A stretch of 64,000 bases of DNA from Carcharhinus longimanus. Its lineage: Eukaryota. Where the stretch lies: assembly GCA_030264375.1 (NCBI GenBank), contig JASCQW010000148.1:13695411-13759410 (forward strand). Direction: 5' to 3'. The notes beneath the pieces were generated by a model that saw nothing but the letters and a program-made list of their open reading frames with translations, made no database searches and was not told the origin of the DNA. A program made the position numbers and the translations under genes. Positions 2,771-63,233 of the stretch are shown here, in pieces. The first letter of the stretch is position 1, and each line of letters opens with the position of its first letter.

Positions 2771-3755
2771 GCTAACAATATAGAGAGTGGTTGCGGATGG
2801 GTCTTTTTCTGCATGGAGGTCGGTCACTAGTGGAATGCCCCAGGGATCTGTTCTGGGACCCTTGCTGTTTGTAATTTTCATAAATGACCTGGACGAAGAA
2901 GTGGAGGGATGGGTTGGTAAGTTTGCCGACAACACGAAGATTGGTGGTGTTGTGGATAGTCTGGAGGGATGTCACAAGTTGCAGCGTGACATAGATAGGA
3001 TGCAAGACTGGGCAGAGAAGTGGCACATAGACTTCAACCCAGATAAATGTGTAGTGGTCCATTTTGGCAGGTCCTATGGGATGAAAGAGTATAATATCAA
3101 GAGTAAGACTCTTAGCAATGTAGAGAATCAGAAGGGCCTTGGGGTCCGGGTCCATAGGACTCTTAAATTGGCCTCGCAGGTGGAGGATGTGGTCAAGAAG
3201 GCATATGGTGTACNNNNNNNNNNNNNNNNNNNNNNNNNNNNNNNNNNNNNNNNNNNNNNNNNNNNNNNNNNNNNNNNNNNNNNNNNNNNNNNNNNNNNNN
3301 NNNNNNNNNNNNNNNNNNNNNNNNNNNNNNNNNNNNNNNNNNNNNNNNNNNNNNNNNNNNNNNNNNNNNNNNNNNNNNNNNNNNNNNNNNNNNNNNNNNN
3401 NNNNNNNNNNNNNNNNNNNNNNNNNNNNNNNNNNNNNNNNNNNNNNNNNNNNNNNNNNNNNNNNNNNNNNNNNNNNNNNNNNNNNNNNNNNNNNNNNNNN
3501 NNNNNNNNNNNNNNNNNNNNNNNNNNNNNNNNNNNNNNNNNNNNNNNNNNNNNNNNNNNNNNCAATTTTTTTCACACAGAACATGGTACAAGCTGCCAGA
3601 GGTAGTAGTAGAAGCAGGTACAATTTTGTCTTTTAAAAAACGTTTAGATAGTTACATGGGTAAGATGGATATAGAGGGATATGGGCACAACTGGGACTAG
3701 CTTAGTGGTTAAAAAAATGGACAAGTTTCCATGTTGTAAACCTCTATGACTCTAA
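2771..3755 (+). mobile_element. 5'-truncated CR1 LINE (RT 3' part and tail)
   Basis: ORF reads GMPQGSVLGPLLFVIFINDLD...KFADNTK, typical CR1 RT; interrupted by N gap. Confidence 0.93.
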
Positions 3756-5679: not shown

Positions 5680-6068
5680 GACTTCATGCCAGCTGAGTCC
5701 CTATTTCATTCTCATACTTTAAATAATTTGTGCATATTCTCCTCTATGCAAGTAAAACAAGTTGCAACGTTAGCATCATGACATGAGAAAGTGCAAATGA
5801 CTAATTCAGCAGAGCACCAGGATATCTTATCAAAATACTAGTCCCACTCAATTTAATTAAAATGTGATTGTTCCCAGTCAAACACTGGGAGCAAAACTGT
5901 GAATTTGTTTGGCTTTCAAATAGTGGCATAGTTAAGTCCAGAGTCAAAATTCCAAACTGCAGACGATCCAATCCAAATACCTACTGGTAGAAATTTTAAA
6001 CATGGTACTTCCAGGGCCAAATGAATCTGAACAAATATCAAAATCCTGCCAACATGGAGCATTTTATT
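5680..6068. repeat. Left arm of long inverted repeat (pairs with 7109-7506)
   Basis: Reverse complement aligns by eye, e.g. ctgccaacatggagcattttatt / aataaaatgctccatgttggcaa. Confidence 0.92.
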
Positions 6069-7108: not shown

Positions 7109-7506
7109 AATAAAATGCTCCATGTTGGCAAGATTTTGATATTTGTTCAGATTCATTTGGCCCTGGAGGAACCATGCTTAAAATTTCTACTAGTAAGTAT
7201 CTGGATTGGATAATCTGCAGTTTGGAATCTTGACTCTGGATTTAACTATGCTGCCATTTGAAAGCCAAACAAATTCACAGTGTCGCTCCTAGAATTTGGC
7301 TGGAACAATCACTAATTTAAAATGAGTGGGGCTGGTATTTTGATAAGATATCCTGGTGCTCTGCTGAATTAGTTATTTGAACTTTACTCTCTCAAGCCAT
7401 GATGCTAATGTTGCAACTTGTTTTACTTGCTAAGAATATGCACCATAATTGCACAAATTATTTAAAGTATGAAATGGAAAAGAAGTTGAACTGGTATTAA
7501 GAGTCA
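7109..7506. repeat. Right arm of long inverted repeat (pairs with 5680-6068)
   Basis: gataagatatcctggtgctctgctgaattag is the exact reverse complement of the left-arm ctaattcagcagagcaccaggatatcttatc. Confidence 0.92.
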
Positions 7507-8074: not shown

Positions 8075-9481
8075 CTGAATGGCAAAGGAACAATAGAATC
8101 ATTTTAATGTACATTTCAAGCATGATATTCTATAGGGCAAGTAAATAATCTGGCTCTACCTTCCCCTCAACATTATTTCACAATTGCCTAATAAGGGATT
8201 TTAACTTCAGCTATCAATGTCTTTTCTCCATCTTTTCGTTCCCTCTTTTATGCAGAAAACCCAGTGCCTTTCTCAGTAACCCATTACATGATCAAAGTAA
8301 ATATGAAGCAATATCCAGCATTCCATGGTACCAAATGGATCAATATTCTTTGACAACACATTCTCTGCAGCCTCCACTGTTCCCTCAGATACTCTCTCAA
8401 CTACTCCCCTTTTTCTCATTGCCAACATGATTCTTATCTTTATATTCCTGTATATAAGTATACATCTGATGCTTCTTAATGGATAATTTTCTGGTGTGTG
8501 CTCCCTGGCTTGCAGCAGGAGTATAGAAGCAGGAAGCTAGTGCAATATTAGTAAGTTGTCTGACAGTTTTTAATATTTTCCATATATAATTCAAGAACGT
8601 TCTCATAAAACACTCAAAAGTTCTAAGTTTAAAAAATTCCATAAACCTACAATTCAATTTAGATTGGGATTTATAACAGAAGTTGCAGCATCCATTCTCT
8701 GTAAAGTGCCTTTTTCATTTCTAACAGTCAAAAAAACCACAATCTGTTCACACATGCTCTTATTCCCAGGTATTGGTTATGAAATTTTAAATAAATGCCA
8801 GACTTGCCTGAAATGAAAGTTTTGACAGTTCAATTTCAAGCTTTTTTCAATAAAATATTTTAGAGAAAGCAAAGAAACTCGCAAAATCTCACCAGGTTAG
8901 AAGTTCATAAAATCTGTATGGTGGAGAAGCAGGCCATTTGGTCCATCGAGCCTGTCTACCTAACTTGCACATCTTTGGAGTGCGGGATGAAACTGAAGCA
9001 CAGACATGGGAAGGACATGCAAACTCCAAACAGTCACCAGAGGCTGGAATTGAACCTCATTCCCTGGTGCTGTGAGGTAGCAGTGCTAACAGTACTGTGC
9101 CACCCTTTTGCAAACTTTCTGCTTCTTTTGATGCACAGGTGACGTGGTGAGACATTCTGCAAACTAACAACTTCAGAATGCACACCATATCTGTATCCTC
9201 CCATTGGTAAAGCTGTCAGATCTTCATTCAGCATAGATGAAGTTACATGTGACAAGTTTACATAAACTGTTTCCATTATAAGTTTGGATGTAGGGAGTTA
9301 TAATGGAAAAAGTTGAGAAGATGTGCACAGAGGAGCAAGATTGATGACATATTAATGATAATGTAGAAATTAATATATACCATATAATCTTACAGCATGA
9401 GGTAATTTGACTCATTGTAAGTATTTAGGAATATTAATACATAAGTTATGAACATTTAAATGAACTGCAAAGAAATATCAC

Positions 9482-13214: not shown

Positions 13215-13480
13215 GCACAGTGGCTAGCAGTGCTACCTCACAACGCCAGGGACCTGGGTTCAATTTCTAGTTTGGGTCACTCTCTGCGCAGTCTGCATGT
13301 TATCCCAGAGTCTGCGTGGGTTACCTCCCACAGTCCAAAAAACATGTTAGATTGATGCATTGACCATGCTAAATTCTCCCTCAGTGTATCTGAGCAGGTG
13401 TCGGAGTATGGTGACTTTCACAGTAACTTCATTGCAATGTTAATGTAAAGTCTACTTGGGACTATTAAATAAACGTTAAC
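13215..13480 (+). mobile_element. tRNA-derived SINE
   Basis: tRNA-like head (cacagtggctagcagtgct...ggttcaattt); same family at 27520, 44115, 62605. Confidence 0.75.
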
Positions 13481-13558
13481 TGTAAAAAAAATTTGAAATA
13501 GTGCTATTAATTGAATTGCACAGGCTATGTTAGATACATATTTTCTCAGCCCTCTTAC

Positions 13559-17010: not shown

Positions 17011-17078
17011 GGGGTTTCAGCTATTAAAAGAGGTTGGTTAGGCTGGGGTTTCAGCTATTAAAAGAGGTTGGTTAGGCT
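17011..17078 (+). repeat. Exact 34-bp tandem duplication within a CR1 fragment
   Basis: ggggtttcagctattaaaagaggttggttaggct occurs twice in a row. Confidence 0.95.
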
Positions 17079-18500
17079 GGGGTTTTCTTTTGAACAGAGA
17101 AGATCGTGGGGGAGACTTGACCGAGATGCACAAAATTAAATGGGACATAAGATAGGGTAGATAGGAAAGAACTTTATCTGCACTAGAAGGATCAATAAGC
17201 AGGGGACATAGATTTAAGTAAAAGGTAGGAGATTTAGAGGGGACATGAGAAAAAACTATGAATCCCTCTGAAGCACAGAATATCCGAGATTCATTCAGGT
17301 GAGTACACCCAAAAAAAAGGGTGGGAAAATCTTCTGTTTTTCCACCCGTTGGACACTTAGGTTTTTTTGGGAGAATCCCAACCATAGTGTTTAGTCAATA
17401 GTACTTGTGGTTTTTTTGTTATAGTGAGTCTTAAAATGTGAAAACTTGTATTGTTATTCTTTCAGCTAGCTATTAATTGGAAGCTCAAATTTATTCTTGA
17501 AATTATGGGTCTCAACAGAGATTGTAACAAGTATTTTTGAAATGTAATCATTACTTAATCTGGTAAACATGGCAGCCAATTAATGACTAGTGAGATCTCA
17601 AACCAGTAATAAAATAAATGACCAAATCATTTATTTCAGGTATTGATTGAGGGATAAATATTGGCCAGGACACCAGAAGAATTCCCTTGCTATATTAAAT
17701 ACTGCCGTGAGATCTTTGATGTCTCATTTAAAAGGCAATGCCTCTAACACTGCAGCATTTCCTCAATACTGCAAGGAAACACTAGCCTAGATTATGTGCT
17801 CAAATCTCTGACTTTGACTCCACAATCTGGTGATTCAGTAGTGAACCCTATGTCAAAAAGGGTAACTGATCTGTTCTCTCCACAGATGGTGACTGATTTG
17901 CGGGGAATTTCCTGCCCTTTTTTAGATTCAGTTTTGTGGCAATTGGATATTCTTTAATTTTTTTTGGTTTGTATGTGGTTAAACATGATGGATAAACAAA
18001 TGTGAAGTTACAGTGTCTAATGGTTAGGAACTAAGTTATGAGGCTTGCCAACAATACTGGTTATCTATGCTACTTAATCTGGCATATTTGTGGGGAGGTG
18101 GTGGCTGAGTGGTATTGTCACTGGACTAGTAATCCAGAGACCCAGGGTAATGTTCTGGTTCGAAATCTACCACAGTTGATTATGAAATTTGAATTCAATA
18201 ATTTGAAATTAAAAGCCTTATGTTAATCATGAAACCATTTTCGATTGTTGCAAAAACCCATTAATGCCATTTAGGGAAGAAATCTGCCACCTGGTCTGAC
18301 TCCAGACACGGAGCAATGTGATTTACTCCTAAATGCCCTCTGAAATGGCCAAGCAAGCCACTCAATTAAAGGGCAATTAGGGATGGGCAATAAGTGCTAG
18401 TCTAGCCAGTGAAGCTTACAACCCTGAACGAATAAAAAAAAGTTATTGCTAGATGTGCTAGTTTTTATCTGGCATGGGACTATCTAGCTCTGCTCCTTAC

Positions 18501-22258: not shown

Positions 22259-22672
22259 ACACATAACGCAGAATCGCCGAGCAAAAACTGATAGTCAAGT
22301 TCCACATGCATGAGGATGGCATCAATCGAGATCTTGGGTTCATGTCACACTACATTTAACTCCCACCACTTGGCCTGGGCTTGCAAAATCCCACTAACTG
22401 TCCTGGCTCAAGACCATTCACATCTCTTCAACTTGGATTATCCCTCTCTCCACTCAACTTGTCTGTACCTGCAAAGACTCGCATTCCAACCATTATTTTG
22501 CAATTGCGTCTCTGTCTATGCCATGTTTGTGAACCCAACTCTCCACTCACCTGAGGAAGGAGCAGTGCTCCGAAAACTCATAATTCCAAATAAATCTGTT
22601 GGACTTTAATCTGGTGTTGTGAGAATTCTTACTATGCCCACCCCAGTCCAACGCCGGCATCTTCACATCATG
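22259..22672 (+). mobile_element. Penelope-like element 3' end with degenerate hammerhead (22548-22582)
   Basis: RIAEQKLIVKF...GINRDLGFMSHY GIY-YIG C-terminus; cac-ctgagga-a-ggagc-agt-gctcc-gaaa. Confidence 0.85.
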
Positions 22673-22689
22673 GACATTGGGATAGGCAA

Positions 22690-23190
22690 TGAGCAGCACC
22701 TCAAGGAGAGTGCAAGAGGACGACACCAGCACAGACAGTCAGCACCACAAAAAGGGGAGCACGAGAGGAGGATACTGGGACAGGCATTAGCACCACCTAA
22801 ATAAGAGTGTGAGGGGAGGACACTGGGACAGACAGCAGTGCTCAGAGGAGAGTGAGAGAGGAGGATACCGAGACAGTCAGCAGTGCCTCGAGGAGAGGGC
22901 AAGAAGAAGACACAGGCAGTCAGCAACATATAGAGGAGAGGGCAATAGAAGGGTACCAGGACATTCAGCAATGCCTAGAAGAGGAGAATAGGATACTGTC
23001 ACTCCAGGTCAGACAGTCAGTAGCACCAAGAGGAGACTGTGAGAGGAGGACACCAGGACAACCAGCAGCACCTAGAGGACAGTGTGAAAGGAGGACACTG
23101 TGACAGATAGCAGCACATAAAGGGGAGTATGAGAGGACATCGGGACATACGGTCAGCACACCTAGATCAAAGTGTGTGAGGAGGCTGAAA
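22690..23190 (+). repeat. Degenerate purine-rich minisatellite, ~40-45-bp unit, ~11-12 copies
   Basis: Recurring cagcacctagaggagagtgtgagaggaggacac(t)gggacagacag(t) motif. Confidence 0.8.
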
Positions 23191-25650: not shown

Positions 25651-27853
25651 TTTATAAAGATGTACAGAATGTCTGTAAAAAATGTAAAATACTACAGGAG
25701 AAATAATAGCGTATGGTCCCTTTAAAAGCTGATTGCGTCAGTGCCTTTAAAAGTGGCTTTGTTCAGTGCTGAAATGTTTAAAATACGGAGTACATACAGA
25801 CATTTCTTTCCAGCATCAAGCCACAGGATTGCCTTGGTAACCAGCTCTGTAGGTTTTTGTATTTTGTTAGCCAATGAGTTTAAAGAAGACACTCAGCTAA
25901 CAGCCTATGAGTTTAAAGAGAACACTCAGCAAAAGGAAACATATCAGATTTGAATTTGCTGTTGTTGTCAGCATCAAACCAATCCTGATGTCTAGATTGC
26001 ATAGGTCATCAGGAATATAAAAAAGAATCTCAATTGCTTTCAGTTCAGTCCCTCAATCCACCAGGGATTGAACCAGGGGTTCAACCAGAAGCAGGGCCCG
26101 ATCACCTGAATCAGTTAAAGGTAGTTAGATCAATGGAACAGTTGGTTCTTAACTCTGCCAGCTTCAGACATGTCTCAAAATAAAATACCCTCTAACCAGT
26201 GAAAAGCACCAAATCAGACAGCACTTACACATAGCGGACTACTATCAAAGAACTCCAAAACTTCCGAATGCTGTCACACCGGGTTGTACATTTTCTTCGA
26301 GAGGAACTAAAATTCTGTTATTATTGTTTTGGTAATGAATGTTCTTTATGTTTATCTGAACAGCATTTCAGTCAAACTTTCCTTTAATTAAAATGTTTCT
26401 GGTTTGTTAAAGTTCTTGTTTGGTTCAAAAAATAAAATAACTTGTTAATTATTTTCTTAAAGTGAGTGTCAGGTCTTTATGCTAATTAACCTCTAACTAT
26501 TAAGGTAGAACACTTGACACTTCTCAAATACTTTTACCAGATTATGAAAAGATNNNNNNNNNNNNNNNNNNNNNNNNNNNNNNNNNNNNNNNNNNNNNNN
26601 NNNNNNNNNNNNNNNNNNNNNNNNNNNNNNNNNNNNNNNNNNNNNNNNNNNNNNNNNNNNNNNNNNNNNNNNNNNNNNNNNNNNNNNNNNNNNNNNNNNN
26701 NNNNNNNNNNNNNNNNNNNNNNNNNNNNNNNNNNNNNNNNNNNNNNNNNNNNNNNNNNNNNNNNNNNNNNNNNNNNNNNNNNNNNNNNNNNNNNNNNNNN
26801 NNNNNNNNNNNNNNNNNNNNNNNNNNNNNNNNNNNNNNNNNNNNNNNNNNNNNNNNNNNNNNNNNNNNNNNNNNNNNNNNNNNNNNNNNNNNNNNNNNNN
26901 NNNNNNNNNNNNNNNNNNNNNATTCCACGCCCTTACTACCCTGTGAGTAAAGAGGAAGTGGGGTCTGGGGGGAGGGGGGCTGGGCATCTGAAGAGGCGGG
27001 GCCGGGCAGGAGGACCAACTGCCACTCTGCATCACAATTGGAAATGAGGACGGGGCCCCGTGGCCACTGCAGGAGATTGTAGGGTTGAGTTTGGTCTGGG
27101 CGGTAGCGGGGAGGATATTTCCAGATGATGTGGGACTTGCGATCACCTGCAGGTTCCTGTGGTAGCTTGGTTGGGGGGTGGGGGTGCGCGTTCTTTGAGG
27201 TCATCTGCAGCAGATCTCTCTGTCATTCCTCTGCTGTTGCAATTACACATGTGCAGTCACAAGAGTCTGCACATGAGCAATAGATCCCTCCACTGCTGGA
27301 ACAGGTTGCTGGTGAATTAAGCCTTGTCCACTGCCTTTGGTGGCTAGAAATGGTCTAGCCCTTTTTTTCCATAGTCTAAGTCCCTAAGATTAGAAGTAAA
27401 GACCCCCCAAAAACACATCTGAAACTCTCCCAGGTTCGTGCTAGTTGCATACTTAGAATTTTTCTCGTAAGATCGCCCCCTTGATTCACTTATTGTCAAT
27501 ATTGTGTCATCATCAAGGTGTGGGCGACACAATGGCACAATGGTTAGCACTGCTGCCTCACAGCGCCAGGGATCCAGGTACAATTCCTGACTTGGGTCAC
27601 TGTCTGTGTGGAGTTTGCACATTCTCCCCTTGTCTGCATGGGTTTCCTCCGACAGTCTGAAAGACATGCTGGTTAGGTGCCTGAGTGTGGCGAATAGGGT
27701 AATTTCACAGTTACTTCATTGCAATGTTAATGTAAATCTTACTTGTGACTACTTTTAATCACCCAAAAAATTCTTAGGAAGTAACATTATGTAATACAGT
27801 TTCTAGGTTTGTAAATGTTCTGAAATATCTTTTAGAATTTTTAGAAAACCAAC

Positions 27854-38555: not shown

Positions 38556-38770
38556 CAGTAAAAAGTCTGACAACACTAGGTTTTAGTCCAACCGATTTAT
38601 TTGATAGTAAACGCACGAGCTTTCGAGGTTTCCCTCTTCGTCAGGTGAATGGAGAGTTCTGGCCTTGAAAGCTTGTGCATTTACTATCAAATAAATCGGT
38701 TGGACTAAAACCTGGTGTTGTCAGACTTTTTACTGTGTTTATCCCAGTCCAATGCCGGCACATCCACATG
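38556..38770. mobile_element. Penelope-like pLTR ends in inverted arrangement
   Basis: 69-bp arms 38556-38624 and 38667-38735 with 3 mismatches; same terminus at 40361 and 46467. Confidence 0.88.
38614..38647 (-). ncRNA. Minimal type I hammerhead ribozyme motif
   Basis: Minus strand reads CAC-CUGACGA-A-GAGG-GAAA-CCUC-GAAA-GCUC-GUG: core boxes, stem II with GNRA loop, palindromic AGCU helix III, stem I CAC/GUG. Confidence 0.8.
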
Positions 38771-40360: not shown

Positions 40361-40434
40361 TTGGACTAAAACCTGGTGTTGTCAGACTTTTTACTGTGTT
40401 TACCCCAGTCCAACGCCGGCACATCCACATCATG
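40361..40434 (+). mobile_element. Penelope-like element terminus next to an N gap
   Basis: Near-identical to 38700-38770. Confidence 0.8.
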
Positions 40435-42905: not shown

Positions 42906-43164
42906 CTCCAACTACAAGACAGCATTGCTCGCGCCTAATGATCTACGTGGCAATGGACATTCCAGCACTCATGGAATTGATTAGAAATTAGGATATTTCT
43001 CACAACATGAGTCAAAAATGTGTTAAGTTACATTTATGTGATGAAGTATTTTAACTTTCAATCAAGACAAAACATTAGATTTAATTCAACCAAGGAAAAA
43101 ATGCATTTTAAAATTACAAACAATGGATTTCTAAAATAAGGGAATTTTCAGAATCTGTGGATCC

Positions 43165-43470
43165 AGAATGGCAAAGTGGTTAGCACAGCTGCCTCACAGT
43201 GTTAGGGACCTGGGTTCAATTCCAGCCTCATAACTGTGTGTGTGGAGTTTGCAAGTTCTCCCTGTGTGTGTATAAGTTTCTTCCGGGAGTTCCTGTTTCC
43301 TCCCACATTCAAAAAATGTGCAGTTTAGATGGATTAGCCTCACTAAGTTGCTCCATAGTGTCAGGTAAAGTAGCAGCATAAATACATTGGGTTACGGTGA
43401 TAGGACATGGTGGGATTGTTGTCGGTGCAAGCCAAATGGCCTCCTTCTGCACTGAAGGGATTTTATGAGT
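43165..43470 (+). mobile_element. tRNA-derived SINE
   Basis: tggcaaagtggttagc A-box-like and ggttcaattcc B-box-like motifs, LINE-like tail. Confidence 0.8.
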
Positions 43471-43861: not shown

Positions 43862-45991
43862 CTAAGAAAAAGGGACCGTCTTGTTTTAAACGCAATTACT
43901 TCTTAAAAGTTATTAATATGAATATATATCTTCATCACTTTGTTAATGCTGAATGAAAACGATGGGGATTACAGAAAATCAAAATGCGTGCACGACTTTA
44001 CACCACAGTAACTTGCATGCTGCAGCTATCCACAACCAACATAAATTCAAGAAGTTAACTTGGCCAGTGTCTCATTTTGATGTTGGTCCAACAGACTCTA
44101 ATACATAAAAAAAAATGGCAGCACCAGGGATCCAGGTTTGATTCCCAGCTTAGGTCACTGTCTGTGTGATGTTTGCATGTTTTCCTGATGTCTGCATGGG
44201 TTTCCTCCAGGTGTTCCCGTTTACTCCCACGTTCTGAAAGACGTGCTGGTTAGGTGCATTGACCCAAACAGGTGCCAGACTGTGGCAACTAGGGGAATTT
44301 TACAGTAACTTCATTGCAGTGTTACTGTAAGCCTTACTTGTGACTAATAAATTAACTTTACTTTGACAGAGATAGCACAGGAGCAATATGTTCAGGTTAG
44401 GAATAATACAACCTTGCTACTCAGAGCACTGTCTGACTAATTGAAATACATTTAGCACACTGAAGACAAATACTAAGTGTTATGATGAGAACAACACGTT
44501 TAAATCCATACAGATAATGGCTCATGCAGCACTTGACGAGATCTAAGTTTGCATCACTGACCTTATTTTTCTTAAAAAAGATAGCAGAGGCATAGAAATT
44601 AAATTTTGGCAAGATTTCCCTGGATGGGAGATCCAGGAGACCGAAAGAAATAGTGTAAATGTTTCACCTGAATTTCTGTGGATAGCTTGAAAAATTTATC
44701 CAAGTGATCAGGAAAAATTCAACCCCATAATATTTAGCATTTAAAATTAATTAAATTGTGATGTGTGTATTAAAGGAATTTCCCCTATTGCATCTACTTT
44801 GAAGACAAATTTATAGAATAGTATTTGTACAATTCTGAGGACATAGGTCTAGAAATTAGGTCATACCCAAAAATGGAGGTGCAGGGACAGAACAAACGTT
44901 GCGCAGTTGTTCAAATGATCACAGAGACCATATGAAATGATTGAATCAGGTTATTTATTGGCCGGGCTGAATTTTGTATATTTGGTCTCTTTAGTCACCC
45001 ACTCACCTCATGATACAAAATGATGTGGAAATATAGGTTGTAAGGAGAATACACAGAAGCTGCAAAAAGAGATAGGCAGGTTAAATGAGGGGCCAACAAG
45101 GATCATAATGTGGGGAAGTGTGTGGTTGTTCACTTTGGTAATAAGAACAGAAATGCAGAACATCTTTAAAAAGTTGTGAACACTTCAAATGTTTGTGTTC
45201 AAAGGACTTGGTTGTCCTTATACAAGGAATACAGGTACAAAATTAGGAACACAAATGGCATATTGGTCTTTAGTGCATGAGGATTGGTGTACAAAAATAA
45301 GGAAGCCTCGCCACAATGATTTGAGCTTTGGTGAGACCAGTCTTTGGTTTGGTCTCCACATATAAGGGAGGAGGCATCATTTAGGACTAATACAAAGACA
45401 GCAGGGGGAATTTTACCATCCCGCCTGCCACAGGAATCGTAGCGGGCAGGAGGTGGGCCATACAAAGGTCCGTTGACCTTGGGGGGGGATTTTCCAGCTC
45501 TGGGCGAGCGTGGCCAGAAAATTCNNNNNNNNNNNNNNNNNNNNNNNNNNNNNNNNNNNNNNNNNNNNNNNNNNNNNNNNNNNNNNNNNNNNNNNNNNNN
45601 NNNNNNNNNNNNNNNNNNNNNNNNGAAAATTCCAACCAGGATTGTGATTCTTTGGAATTCTCTTCCCCAATATACTACAGAAGCTCCAATTTAGATATAT
45701 TCAAAGTTGAGAGATCTTTGACCTCTCAGGGAATCAAGGGACATAGGAGCAGTGGAATTGAGGCTGATCATCAGCCATAATCTTAATGAATGGGAGGGCA
45801 GGCTCCTGGGGCCATATAATCTATACCCACTCCCATTTCTTACAGACTGGTATGATTTGAAACGTTTCCGAAATAGTAAGAATCAATCCTGTTAATTCTG
45901 ATATGCTTGTATGAAATGAAACAAATTTGAGACAAATGCTAAGTACTAGCAATAATACAGAACCTGCTTGTCACCAAATTAATTTTCTTAC

Positions 45992-46466: not shown

Positions 46467-46538
46467 CATGATGTGGGTATGCCGGCGTTGGACTGGCGTA
46501 AACACAGTAAAAAGTCTGACAACACCAGGTTTTAGTCC
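46467..46538 (-). mobile_element. Penelope-like element terminus next to an N gap
   Basis: Reverse complement of 40363-40434 with 3 mismatches. Confidence 0.8.
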
Positions 46539-56222: not shown

Positions 56223-56424
56223 CTAAAAGGCCAGACAAAATCCACAGAATACTAATTAGTCGAGTTAGAATATTGTATTATAATCATGCCACACACCCAT
56301 CCAATTACTAATGAATGCAATAAGCACACTAAAGGAATACAAAATTTGCAAAAAGGAAAAGAAATTGCTTGTGCAACTGTAGAAGTAGCTCTTCTAAATT
56401 TGAGAGTTAAAATATTGTCATTAC

Positions 56425-59123
56425 TGTTGTAGTGTTATTATAAACATCTTGTATAAATGTCTGTAATGGTGGTGCACATGTACAGAGTGACATCAGTAGC
56501 ACAGATTTAATCTTTCACTAGCTGCTGCTTCCAGTCCAGAATTGTTGCTGTAACATAGTTTAATGTTTCTTTGCATATAAAGCAGTTTGAATTAACACAC
56601 TTGACTACCTTTCGTGACTGAAGTTACCACATCTTTTTGGTGACGAGGAGGAAACGGTGCTGTTGAAAGGAACAGAAGTAATCGAACAATGATCAGCAAG
56701 GCAGCATGAAGATTTGCACACTGCGTAGCAAGTTTATGACATGAGCAGTGACCCATGGCTCAAATCAGCAGGTTCTCATGAGTTTTAACGAAGAAACAAG
56801 TAACAGCACCATGGCTACGTTCTGGACTATCAGTGAGTTTATAGAAGAGAACAGGGATCTTTTATGTAGAAAGATTACAAAACTCGGGGTGGAGGGGAAC
56901 ACGCTTTGGGACAGACTAGGTTTGTGACATTAATGAGGATAGCATTCAGTGGCTTTTGTGGGGAGAAGCCACACTTAATTTTAAGGCGGCTCTAGAAGCT
57001 TCTCAGCGCGTGGAAATGGTGCCAGCAATGCAAAAGATATTCAGAAGGCCAACAGCGGCCCACAATTAAACAAAGAGGCTGCAAGTAAAAAGGTGAAGAC
57101 AGTGGAGTGTTTTAGGTATGGAGGACGAAGAAATTCCTGATGCAAGAATGCCTTATAGTTGTAGAGGATGATGAGCTGAGACCATATGCAAAAGCAGAAA
57201 GATAAGCTAAATGTGCACGATGGGGTTGCATTCTTTGGGGTTCCAAAGTAGTAGTTCCCCCAACATCGTGTGTTATGGTTGAAATGCAAACCCAGGTATC
57301 TCCTAACATCAAGTGTAGTATCGACATGCTGTGCTCAGTTGAAGTCATTAGGTTACATTTTAGCTTCATTTGAAGCAATTTTTAAAAGTGGCATCTCGGC
57401 CTTTTGGCTAAGANNNNNNNNNNNNNNNNNNNNNNNNNNNNNNNNNNNNNNNNNNNNNNNNNNNNNNNNNNNNNNNNNNNNNNNNNNNNNNNNNNNNNNN
57501 NNNNNNNNNNNNNTTTTAGCTTCATTTGAAGCAATTTTTAAAAGTGGCATCTCGGCCTTTTGGCTAAGATGCAAATGAGATCAAGCCTTGCAGGAGGAGC
57601 TATGCCTACTCCAATCAGTTTGGATCATGTAGATCAAGCCCAAGACAGGAGGTGAGAGCCCTGTCTTATCAGCTTGGACCGGGAATGTCTCAACTCGTTG
57701 AGACTCTGAAATGGACTTGATTTGATTGAATTGGAATTAAAAACATAAAAAAGTCTAGTCAGGTCGTCTGTTTGGCGTCCCAACATGGATCAAGACTTGG
57801 AGAACAAAGTGAAATCCTGTAAGCTGGTGCCACCAGTAGCACTACATCCTTGGGAGTGGCCTGATCCTCCTTGGGCGAGACTTCATGTGGATCTTGAAAG
57901 ACCGACCACATGTTTTTAGTTATCACGGATGCACATTCTAAGTGGTTAGAACTACACATCATAAGCAACATTACAATTCCCAGTACCATAACTACGCAAA
58001 GTTTTTGCAACTCATGATTTACCGGATTCTCTTGCTTCAGGTAATGGGATAACGTTTACAAGTGACCTGTTGCAAGTTTATGTGAAGGAATGGAATACAT
58101 CATGGTATACTGTACCTTTTCATCCAGCATCAAATGGGTTAGCAGAGTGAGCTGTACAGACACTGAAGGAAGGAGTGAGTGAAAAAAATGTCAAGTGATA
58201 CTTTAGGAACCAAGCTCTCAAGGTTCTTGTTCCAGTATTGCATCACACTGCCATCAAAAACAGGACTCTCTCCAGCTGAATTACTAACAGGTAGGAAGCT
58301 AAAGTCTCACTTAGATCTGCTACACCCAGATGTCAAAGTAAAGGTAGGCAGAAAATAGGAAAAGCAGAAGGAGAGGCATGATTATCATACTAAAGAGCAA
58401 CAATTCCATCCAAATGACTGTGCCTATGTGAAGAATTTTGGCAGTAATCAACACAGGTTTAGAATAATTCCAGGTAGCCAATGTGATTCAGTATCTTTAG
58501 TAGTGAAACTACTTAATGGAAGAGTCATTTGCACTCACCAAGATCACATTCATCTATTCCATGATTTAGATTCAGCCAAGATTCCAAATCACACTGAAGA
58601 AGGCAATGCTGCTGTGGAAGTTCAACAATAAGTGGTTCCTGTTGTACCAGGACTTCCACTGGACTCTACTTCAGGACAGGAACACTCATGCACAGTTACT
58701 CAACCTACTTCTGTGCTCACAAGTTCAGCTGAACTAAATCAAGCATCACCAGAGTGGACATAGTCACCGGTGGTATTAAGCAGATCACAGAACAGTCACA
58801 AAATTCATGAATGCCGTATAGTTAAGACATTAGTTTCATTGTATTTCTGTCCTTAAGGGAGATTGGAATTAAAGGAAGGGGAGAAGTGTTATAGTGTGTT
58901 ATTATAAGTATTTTCTTATTGAAGTGCATTTATCGATGTCTGTAACAGCTGTGCACATGTGGAGTGATGTCATAAATAGCACGTTTAGTCTTCCATGAGA
59001 GACCTGTGTACCAGCTCCTGGTCCTGAGTTCTTGTTGTATTATATTTCGAAGTTTTTTTTGTAGACAAAGTAGTTTGAATTTATTAATGCATTTGACTAC
59101 CTTTTGTGGCTAAAATTACCACA
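56425..59123 (+). mobile_element. Internally deleted Gypsy LTR element with both LTRs (56425-56631, 58887-59123)
   Basis: TG...CA LTRs sharing ttgactaccttt..ttaccaca; PBS tggtgacgagga at 56638; PPT 58871-58886; integrase relics (FHPASNGLAE); flanks attac/ataac. Confidence 0.88.
57310..57741 (+). mobile_element. Inserted element with U2 snRNA-derived segments (SINEU-like or Keno/Utopia-related)
   Basis: atcaagtgtagtatc (57308-57322) and tctcggccttttggctaagat (57550-57570) equal recalled U2 nt 26-40 and 7-27; aacat on both flanks; splits the Gypsy PGIS|KSLVRS motif. Confidence 0.75.
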
Positions 59124-62604: not shown

Positions 62605-62905
62605 TCCGTGAACGGCACGAAAGCACAGTGGTTAGCCCTGCTTCCTCACAGTGTCAGGGACCAGGGTTCGATTCCTGGCTTGGATCACCATCTGTGCAGA
62701 ATCTGCACATTCTCCCTGTGTCTATGTGATTTCCTCCAGGTGCTTCAGTTTCCTCCCACAGTCCGAAAGACGTGCTGGTTAGGTGCATTGGCCATGCTAA
62801 ATTCTCCCTCAGTGTACCCAAACAGGCTCTGGAATATGGTGACTAGGGGATTTTCACAGTAACTTCATTGCAGTGTTAATGTAAGCCTACTTGTGACTAA
62901 TTAAA
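62605..62905 (+). mobile_element. tRNA-derived SINE
   Basis: gcacagtggttagc and ggttcgattcc pol III boxes; shared cagtaacttcattgcagtgttaatgtaagcctacttgtgacta tail. Confidence 0.85.
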
Positions 62906-63233
62906 AAAAAGTTATCTTTGTCCATTAAGCCTATGTAAAGCACCTGAAGTTGAATATGTTAAATGCACTATTGGCATGCTAATTATTATGTTAATTTCCC
63001 AAGTAGGACATTCCCAAGGCAAGTCATGTCAAAAGAAATGAACACCCTTATATATTGGAGTGGCAAACATAATAGAGGAAAGATAATAGAAAAGAAAAAC
63101 AATTATTTCTAGCAAACTAAGTGATCTTTTCTTTGAAATAGGTTAAGATTAAGCTAACTACATTGGTTGCATTCTAAGGAATAGATTTCTACCAACTTTT
63201 TTATAGTCATTAATAAAATGAAACTTTTATTAC

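Follow-up and report, generated by a model that had tools for sequence, protein, structure and literature searches.

The analysed window, a stretch of 64,000 nucleotides (64 kb), contains at 56400-59123 a Gypsy element on the plus strand. This element is short (~2.7 kb), has both LTRs, carries many stops and frameshifts, and apparently lacks most of pol. The aligned ranges of its 5' LTR (56400-56631) and 3' LTR (58863-59123) are identical at 171 of 229 aligned bases; with LTRs just 74.7% identical, the Gypsy is old, and the insert that it carries is younger. The element lies between two putative minus-strand exons of a coiled-coil gene (59810-59694 and 47240-46933), indicating that the Gypsy and its insert are putatively intronic and antisense to this gene. 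Further putative minus-strand exons of the same gene were seen at 34118-33997, 21068-20949, 13747-13559 and 11409-11212, and one exon is proline-rich. Pfam and PDB searches gave the gene no name; we take it to be centriolin (CNTRL)-like.

According to the preliminary description, an insert flanked by aacat splits the Gypsy integrase. The integrase flank was upheld. To the left of the insert are PGIS codons (57292-57303), which we take to be part of the Gypsy integrase zinc-binding region, and the 32 aa upstream of them gave no Pfam integrase match. The zinc-binding region resumes at 57752-57823, which matched positions 28-51 of Pfam PF17921 Integrase_H2C2 with an E of 7e-4, below the curated cut-off. 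The status of aacat as a target-site duplication (TSD) was not upheld. Flank comparison gave a left candidate at 57305-57309 and a right candidate at 57742-57746. Random flank pairs shared a 5-mer in 1822 of 20,000 cases in a tight test (9%) and in 10,001 of 20,000 in a loose one, so the pair is at chance level and is no proof of a TSD by itself. Moreover, the U2 match on the left, which extends to nt 21, covers the left aacat. It may be that aacat was a short TSD whose end doubled as microhomology for a truncated cDNA.

The insert is about 280 bases long (~276-283 nt; 283 nt for 57303-57741 when a 56-nt overlap described below is counted once), non-coding and partly composed of U2 snRNA pieces, and it has the appearance of a single copy from a small family of mobile elements similar to SINEU. 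In 5' to 3' order, U2 nt 21-40 is followed by spacer X of 65 nt, another U2 head, a duplicated body unit of ~52 nt, a hairpin and a ttga-type tail. Coding capacity is absent: none of P0001-P0004 matched Pfam, and the translation of the insert showed no ORF remnant. The order of the U2 pieces had been described as permuted. Permutation is unnecessary, as a 5'-truncated element with two successive U2 heads gives the same order.

The first U2 piece lies at 57303-57322 and matches U2 nt 21-40 at 19 of 20 positions, as compared by eye with the U2 sequences printed in PMC2199211 and in S1 Fig of PMC4640811. Its part at 57308-57322 equals nt 26-40 exactly in the Xenopus U2 segment nt 19-46 printed in PMC2199211, and the branch-point recognition sequence is intact. 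The earlier report of an exact nt 26-40 match with this sequence is thereby borne out by eye, with the difference that the piece reaches further 5', to nt 21; the bases at 57303-57309 may be target DNA serving as microhomology. The second U2 head (57547-57582) matches nt 4-27 at 23 of 24 positions (57547-57570, against human U2 nt 1-75 printed in PMC4640811 S1 Fig) and continues into an eroded nt 28-40. Within it, the 21 nt of U2 nt 7-27 (stem-loop I) are exact at 57550-57570, as first reported. The chance expectation is ~4e-6 for this 21-mer and ~7e-5 for the 15-mer of nt 26-40 beside it. The anchored nt 28-40 continuation of the second head was equalled by 548 of 20,000 random 16-mers (p about 0.03), and the branch-point sequence has been lost in this eroded part. 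In the second head, three extra pairs lengthen stem-loop I, which folds with a z of -4.2. Besides the segments named above, the references printed for comparison by eye were Xenopus nt 92-115 (PMC2199211) and nt 39-58 (PMC6136364), and the U2 motif is confirmed in yeast in the available part of a preprint (bioRxiv 10.1101/2024.08.29.610268).

The suggested alignment to the Rfam U2 model (RF00004) gave a divided result. Positions 7-26 matched 20 of 20 at both 57394-57413 and 57550-57569, scoring 19.5 bits, which is below the gathering score of 46 bits; the piece of nt 26-40 was not reported as U2 in narrow scans, and these scans gave no U2 support outside nt 7-26. At the gathering threshold, the whole 64-kb window yielded 0 Rfam matches. 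A U2 snRNA gene would be expected to reach the gathering score and to have stem I contiguous with the branch-point sequence, neither of which was found here (19.5 vs 46 bits). The narrow scans also returned Afu_191 antisense to the branch-site piece (E 5.2), CRISPR-DR and miRNA models, which were dismissed as chance matches. The head and body together fold with a z of about -2.3 on the sense strand. Separately, we observed that the minus strand of 57514-57746, the strand that would be present in the pre-mRNA of the host gene, folds better than shuffles (z -4.0, 0 of 200; sense strand z -2.3). A hammerhead or HDV-like ribozyme was considered and rejected after both folds were inspected by eye and Rfam gave no match.

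Spacer X (57323-57387, 65 nt) contains a small hairpin at 57363-57376 and may resemble a promoter element. Its possible origin as an eroded homologue of the right body, which would make the insert a true dimer, was rejected, since 2522 of 3000 random pieces scored equally well. The body consists of unit 1 (57576-57626, ~52 nt), which contains U2 nt 48-55 at 57614-57621 (8/8), and unit 2 (57628-57680), an old duplicate of it that agrees with it in 39 of 54 columns. Unit 2 contains an 8-bp hairpin and, at 57661-57675, matches U2 nt 40-55 at 14 of 16 positions. Each unit thus ends in a match to U2 nt 48-55. The duplication score was reached by 0 of 5000 random pieces and 2 of 5000 shuffles. Two agatcaag...atcag pieces had been taken for further U2 fragments; both belong to this one old duplication of ~52 nt and are therefore not independent U2 fragments. 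Next comes a 7-bp hairpin (57687-57704, fold z -3.6) that corresponds in place to U2 stem IIb only by eye, with no Rfam U2 support. The 3' tail (57709-57741) carries the ttga-type simple repeats that were originally noted, visible at the 3' end of the insert between matches to U2 nt 93-99 (7/7) and nt 103-108 (6/6), and then an A run of 3-5 nt that merges into an A-rich flank. The tail matches come from a post hoc comparison with U2 nt 92-115 as printed in PMC2199211, and the control for the nt 103-108 match is approximate, as it used a 6-mer offset by one base.

A second copy of the unit was detected through a protein search. The stop-free frame of the insert (P0003) gave three matches among 1.84 billion protein representatives, one of which, P0004, was real; the other two, P0005 and P0006, are repetitive proteins that were judged chance matches and dropped. 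P0004 has 74 aa, bears the source label jgi and lies on a single 1548-nt contig. At 57551-57679, 43 of its codons aligned with the insert at 70% amino-acid identity, and the alignment crosses a stop codon in the window sequence, indicating that P0004 is a spurious ORF through another copy of the insert unit. At least 14 substitutions in 129 nt separate the two copies, so that they are at most 89% identical, and P0004 differs at one U2-matching base of body unit 2. The upstream residues of P0004 were compatible, in another frame, with X at 57350-57383 at 30 of 34 positions (20.7 bits; the best of 202 controls reached 19.6), showing that the 3' part of X belongs to the family. This homology reaches 57350, 8 nt past the start of the 56-nt overlap. 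Since P0004 has spacer, head and body in one pass, the three parts travel together and the unit occurs elsewhere. Residues 1-15 of P0004 showed no similarity to 57280-57352 (121 of 202 controls scored equally), so that the first U2 piece may not belong to the family unit. P0004, in which the codons at 57548 and 57572 differ, has not retained the lengthened stem I, and the latter was rejected as a conserved compensatory feature.

No further copies were found within the 64-kb window. With forward-strand frames, the protein search with P0001 gave no candidate and the search with P0004 returned only itself; alignment A2 gave 0 of 687 candidates among longer proteins, and a 21-nt pattern had 0 matches in GTDB genomes. 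Alignment A2 had at least two matches in GTDB genomes among the 600 stretches listed; both were actinobacterial, had no DNA similarity to the insert and were rejected. The collections searched are mostly prokaryotic or protein sets and give no copy number. The earlier proposal of a mobile, non-autonomous U2-derived family therefore gains support from the diverged P0004, with its spacer, head and body, and from an insert younger than its Gypsy host, with one other copy as its extent so far. The finding of P0004 also bears on whether the insert is a one-off chimeric U2 retropseudogene, or due to chance. There is no second copy in the 64-kb window and the TSD is weak, as this would lead one to expect, but P0004 has the non-U2 spacer and the body in the same order and the chance expectation is 4e-6. 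We consider a one-off event very improbable, as P0004 contradicts it unless P0004 is the orthologous locus of a related species.

The insert is interrupted by a gap of 100 N at 57414-57513. Runs of 100 N are the customary placeholder for a gap of unspecified size, and eight of the window's 14 gaps have exactly this length, so this gap is probably such a placeholder. The last 56 nt of the left contig (57358-57413) and the first 56 nt after the gap (57514-57569) are 100% identical and flush with both gap edges, an exact suffix/prefix overlap. The repeat across the gap is therefore as initially described, except that it is 56 nt rather than 57 nt long. Most likely, it is an unmerged contig overlap, since perfect identity flush with both gap edges is how two unmerged overlapping contigs would appear. 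The genuine repeats of the element are far more diverged (39 of 54 columns between the body units; at most 89% identity to P0004). Counting against an overlap, the other seven 100-N gaps of the window have overlaps of just 0-9 nt, and there is thus no fixed k-1 signature. Elsewhere in the window, a perfect 34-nt tandem of 2.2 copies (17011-17085) and an 18-nt repeat around a 3-N gap (1013-1061) could be further assembly overlaps.

The 56-nt repeat across the gap had been interpreted as evidence of ~105-nt tandem units. A real head-to-tail array of units of about 105 nt (U2 7-40 plus X), of the same mobile family and partly hidden in the gap, would agree with the short overlaps at the other 100-N gaps, with a left contig that ends one base before the point at which U2 and body diverge, and with the frequent tandem arrangement of SINEU copies described in PMC4494074. 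Nevertheless, the 56-nt repeat is perfect and flush with both gap edges, and with an identical tandem one would expect the right contig to extend left beyond 56 nt. The left head also has the nt-6 change of the right head, a change that pairs only with the body continuation, and in P0004 X, head and body occur a single time and are not preceded by U2 21-40. No second full 105-nt unit was found, and none of the 10 TRF rows in the 64-kb window lies at the insert locus. An array is accordingly unlikely, and we retain the contig overlap.

We also considered whether a diverged U2 paralogue shortened at its 3' end (U2 nt 1-108) makes up the right part, either as a variant snRNA gene or as a U2-derived satellite unit, with X as its upstream promoter region that moved along. 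By eye, matches to nt 4-27, 28-40 and 48-55, a stem-IIb-like hairpin, and matches to nt 93-99 and 103-108 are colinear; the head and body fold with the z of about -2.3 given above, X is conserved in P0004, and a U2-derived satellite is known in Ciona (PMC4640811). However, the colinearity past nt 40 comes from a post hoc comparison by eye, Rfam supports U2 similarity no further than nt 26, and the tail matches are short, AT-rich and picked after the fact. In addition, the second head no longer has its branch-point sequence, and U2 21-40 before X is left unexplained. We regard this origin as rather improbable.

Taken together, we favour, with a probability of roughly 55%, the explanation that the insert is one 5'-truncated copy of a non-coding, non-autonomous U2-headed retroposon family and that the gap repeat is an unmerged contig overlap. 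This explanation rests on U2 matches far above chance, on near-perfect U2 pieces within a Gypsy whose LTRs are 74.7% identical, and on the precedent of SINEU-1, for which repeated 5' addition of U1/U2 pieces, partial duplication and occasional TSDs are described in PMC4494074. It is weakened by there being one other copy only, by the lack of a clear poly(A), by the chance-level TSD and by the absence of the lengthened stem I from P0004. Retroposition, a LINE partner, a transcription route, a high copy number and the contig overlap are what we infer from these features.

In this proposed mechanism, the template RNA would have run from the U2 5' end (to nt 40) through spacer X, the eroded U2 head and the duplicated hairpin body to the tail. 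A LINE enzyme, by analogy with the proposal for SINEU most likely of the Tx1/L1 group, would have carried out target-primed reverse transcription at a nick in an A-rich site of the old Gypsy integrase. Synthesis of the cDNA would have halted inside the first U2 piece, and its end would have joined the target via a 6/7 microhomology. The family would grow as a fresh U2 5' piece is put in front of an older, eroded one, through either template switching or a master copy transcribed from a U2 gene. Both heads stop around nt 40, which lies two bases beyond the 38|39 site of Keno and Utopia (PMC4640811). Such ends agree with transcription of a master copy from a U2 gene, and also with template switching in this single-stranded region (PMC5322556).

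The locus thus contains a real U2-headed insert, probably of a SINEU-like family in a new lineage, with the tandem structure unsupported. A U2-headed family in another vertebrate lineage would mean either more than one origin of the design or a greater age than assumed so far, and its spacer and recurrent nt-40 junction would offer testable handles on the promoter source and the LINE involved. A bolder version, which we offer tentatively and consider unlikely as a whole, is that an uncatalogued SINEU-type family evolved independently in cartilaginous fish. Most of its body would have been remodelled from the 5' half of U2, from stem I to the Sm-site region, and would include a duplicated hairpin module. 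The family would keep gaining new heads of U2 nt 1-40 in which the branch-point recognition sequence is intact, would be transcribed from U2-type promoters, and would owe its mobility to a Keno-related Tx1 element. If so, it would represent a second origin of snRNA-headed SINEs and a system for studying their transcription. In principle, copies that are transcribed and have an intact branch-point sequence could interact with splicing.

The window contains several other repeats. A SINE-like family, which presumably resembles shark V-SINE/HE1, has copies 68-85% alike at 62623-62917, 13215-13481, 27528-27754, 43164-43361, 44119-44360 and 8958-9102. A young repeat end occurs at 40361-40434, 38700-38769, 46467-46538 and 22599-22672 (81-97% identical), and two assembly gaps adjoin these copies. 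We also observed an inverted repeat pair at 5701-6068 and 7109-7482 (~370 nt, 86% identical), possibly DNA transposon ends, a CR1-like reverse transcriptase fragment at 2784-3212 (Pfam RVT_1, E 3e-12) and a degenerate 45-nt tandem array of 9.6 copies at 22692-23137 (TRF). The CR1-like reverse transcriptase and the repeated SINE-like families look, on our assumption, like shark repeats; two motifs of this sort had no match in the published literature searched (0 papers). As for a tRNA-derived head, ARAGORN reported 0 genes in the 64-kb window; it also missed the SINE-like repeats there and so has little power as a test for tRNA-headed SINEs.

We compared the insert with known U2-linked sequences. 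Like the U2_sat of Ciona, it contains repeated U2-derived sequence, but U2_sat is a satellite of near-contiguous U2 (PMC4640811), whereas TRF found no array at the insert, with gap content of unspecified length. With tailless and chimeric U2 retropseudogenes it shares U2 5' pieces that end in a single-stranded region; those are, in contrast, independent copies with TSDs of 8-35 nt in the screen described in PMC5322556, and the insert has a non-U2 spacer and a body in common with P0004. Utopia (NeSL clade) has the same U2 site, and reptile Utopia copies also occur outside U2 genes, but Utopia encodes a reverse transcriptase (RT) and a restriction-like endonuclease and has U2-like 3' flanks, and the insert has neither; the Utopia organism table includes no fish (PMC4640811).

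A link to Keno or Utopia, which had been suggested from the point at which U2 identity ends, proved a near miss. As described in PMC4640811 and PMC6136364, both insert between U2 nt 38 and 39, so that U2 nt 39 onward follows. U2 identity in the insert ends close to this site, at nt 40, where an element of this kind would have a 5' flank of U2 ending near nt 38; its 3' flank, however, is Gypsy and not U2 nt 39 onward. Keno (Tx1 clade) and the insert are thus alike in a U2 junction near nt 38-40 (PMC4494074, PMC4640811, PMC6136364) and differ in that Keno is autonomous and the insert has no ORF, with none of the Tx1-type ORFs (APE, RT) of Keno found in it. The insert could still stem from a Keno-related Tx1 element, as its 5' end or as a short derivative with internal deletions, co-transcribed from a U2 gene and inserted off target, which we hold to be decidedly doubtful. 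It is true that both U2 pieces stop at nt 40 or close to it, two bases beyond the 38|39 site, and that the crocodilian Tx1-11_Crp carries a U2 head (PMC4494074). Yet no ORF remnant is present, the 3' flank lacks U2 nt 39 onward, and such U2 ends arise otherwise: SINEU-3 keeps the first 32 nt of U2 (PMC4494074), and tailless U2 copies also break in single-stranded regions (PMC5322556). The insert is neither Keno, Utopia nor a U2 gene.

No report of a U2-headed SINE in sharks appeared among the literature matches listed, and no occurrence of the four body motifs was found among those listed; the available excerpts of PMC5499810, PMC1513397 and PMC5786205 contain no shark snRNA-headed SINE. SINEU families are reported only from crocodilians, with none found elsewhere, in the available text of Kojima 2015 (PMC4494074), an attribution repeated in the available part of a 2017 review (PMC5381603). 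According to the former, U1/U2 pieces were added repeatedly at the 5' end and partial duplications occurred, the TSDs are uncertain, mobilisation is probably by Tx1, and the promoter and transcription mode are left open. SINEU hosts are crocodilian and the host of the insert is probably a shark, and the two were compared by structure, with SINEU bodies taken from their description only. SINEU ends in poly(A), whereas the tail of the insert is of the ttga type and carries no more than 5 A; SINEU prefers Mariner-N4_AMi as a target, though in just 13-23% of cases for SINEU-1 and -2, whereas the insert lies in a Gypsy integrase (PMC4494074). Of the many dispersed copies with one structure that mark SINEU, a single one besides the insert, P0004, turned up in the sets searched. 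The insert is below 500 bp and non-coding (283 nt, overlap counted once) and has an snRNA-derived 5' head, as expected of SINEU with its U1/U2 heads. SINEU-1, SINEU-3 and the insert are all short and non-coding, with a U2-derived 5' head, stacked U2 pieces and partial duplications, a weak or absent TSD and a site within another transposable element (PMC4494074). Judged by its sequence, the insert would work like the crocodilian SINEU, although we do not assign it as a member.
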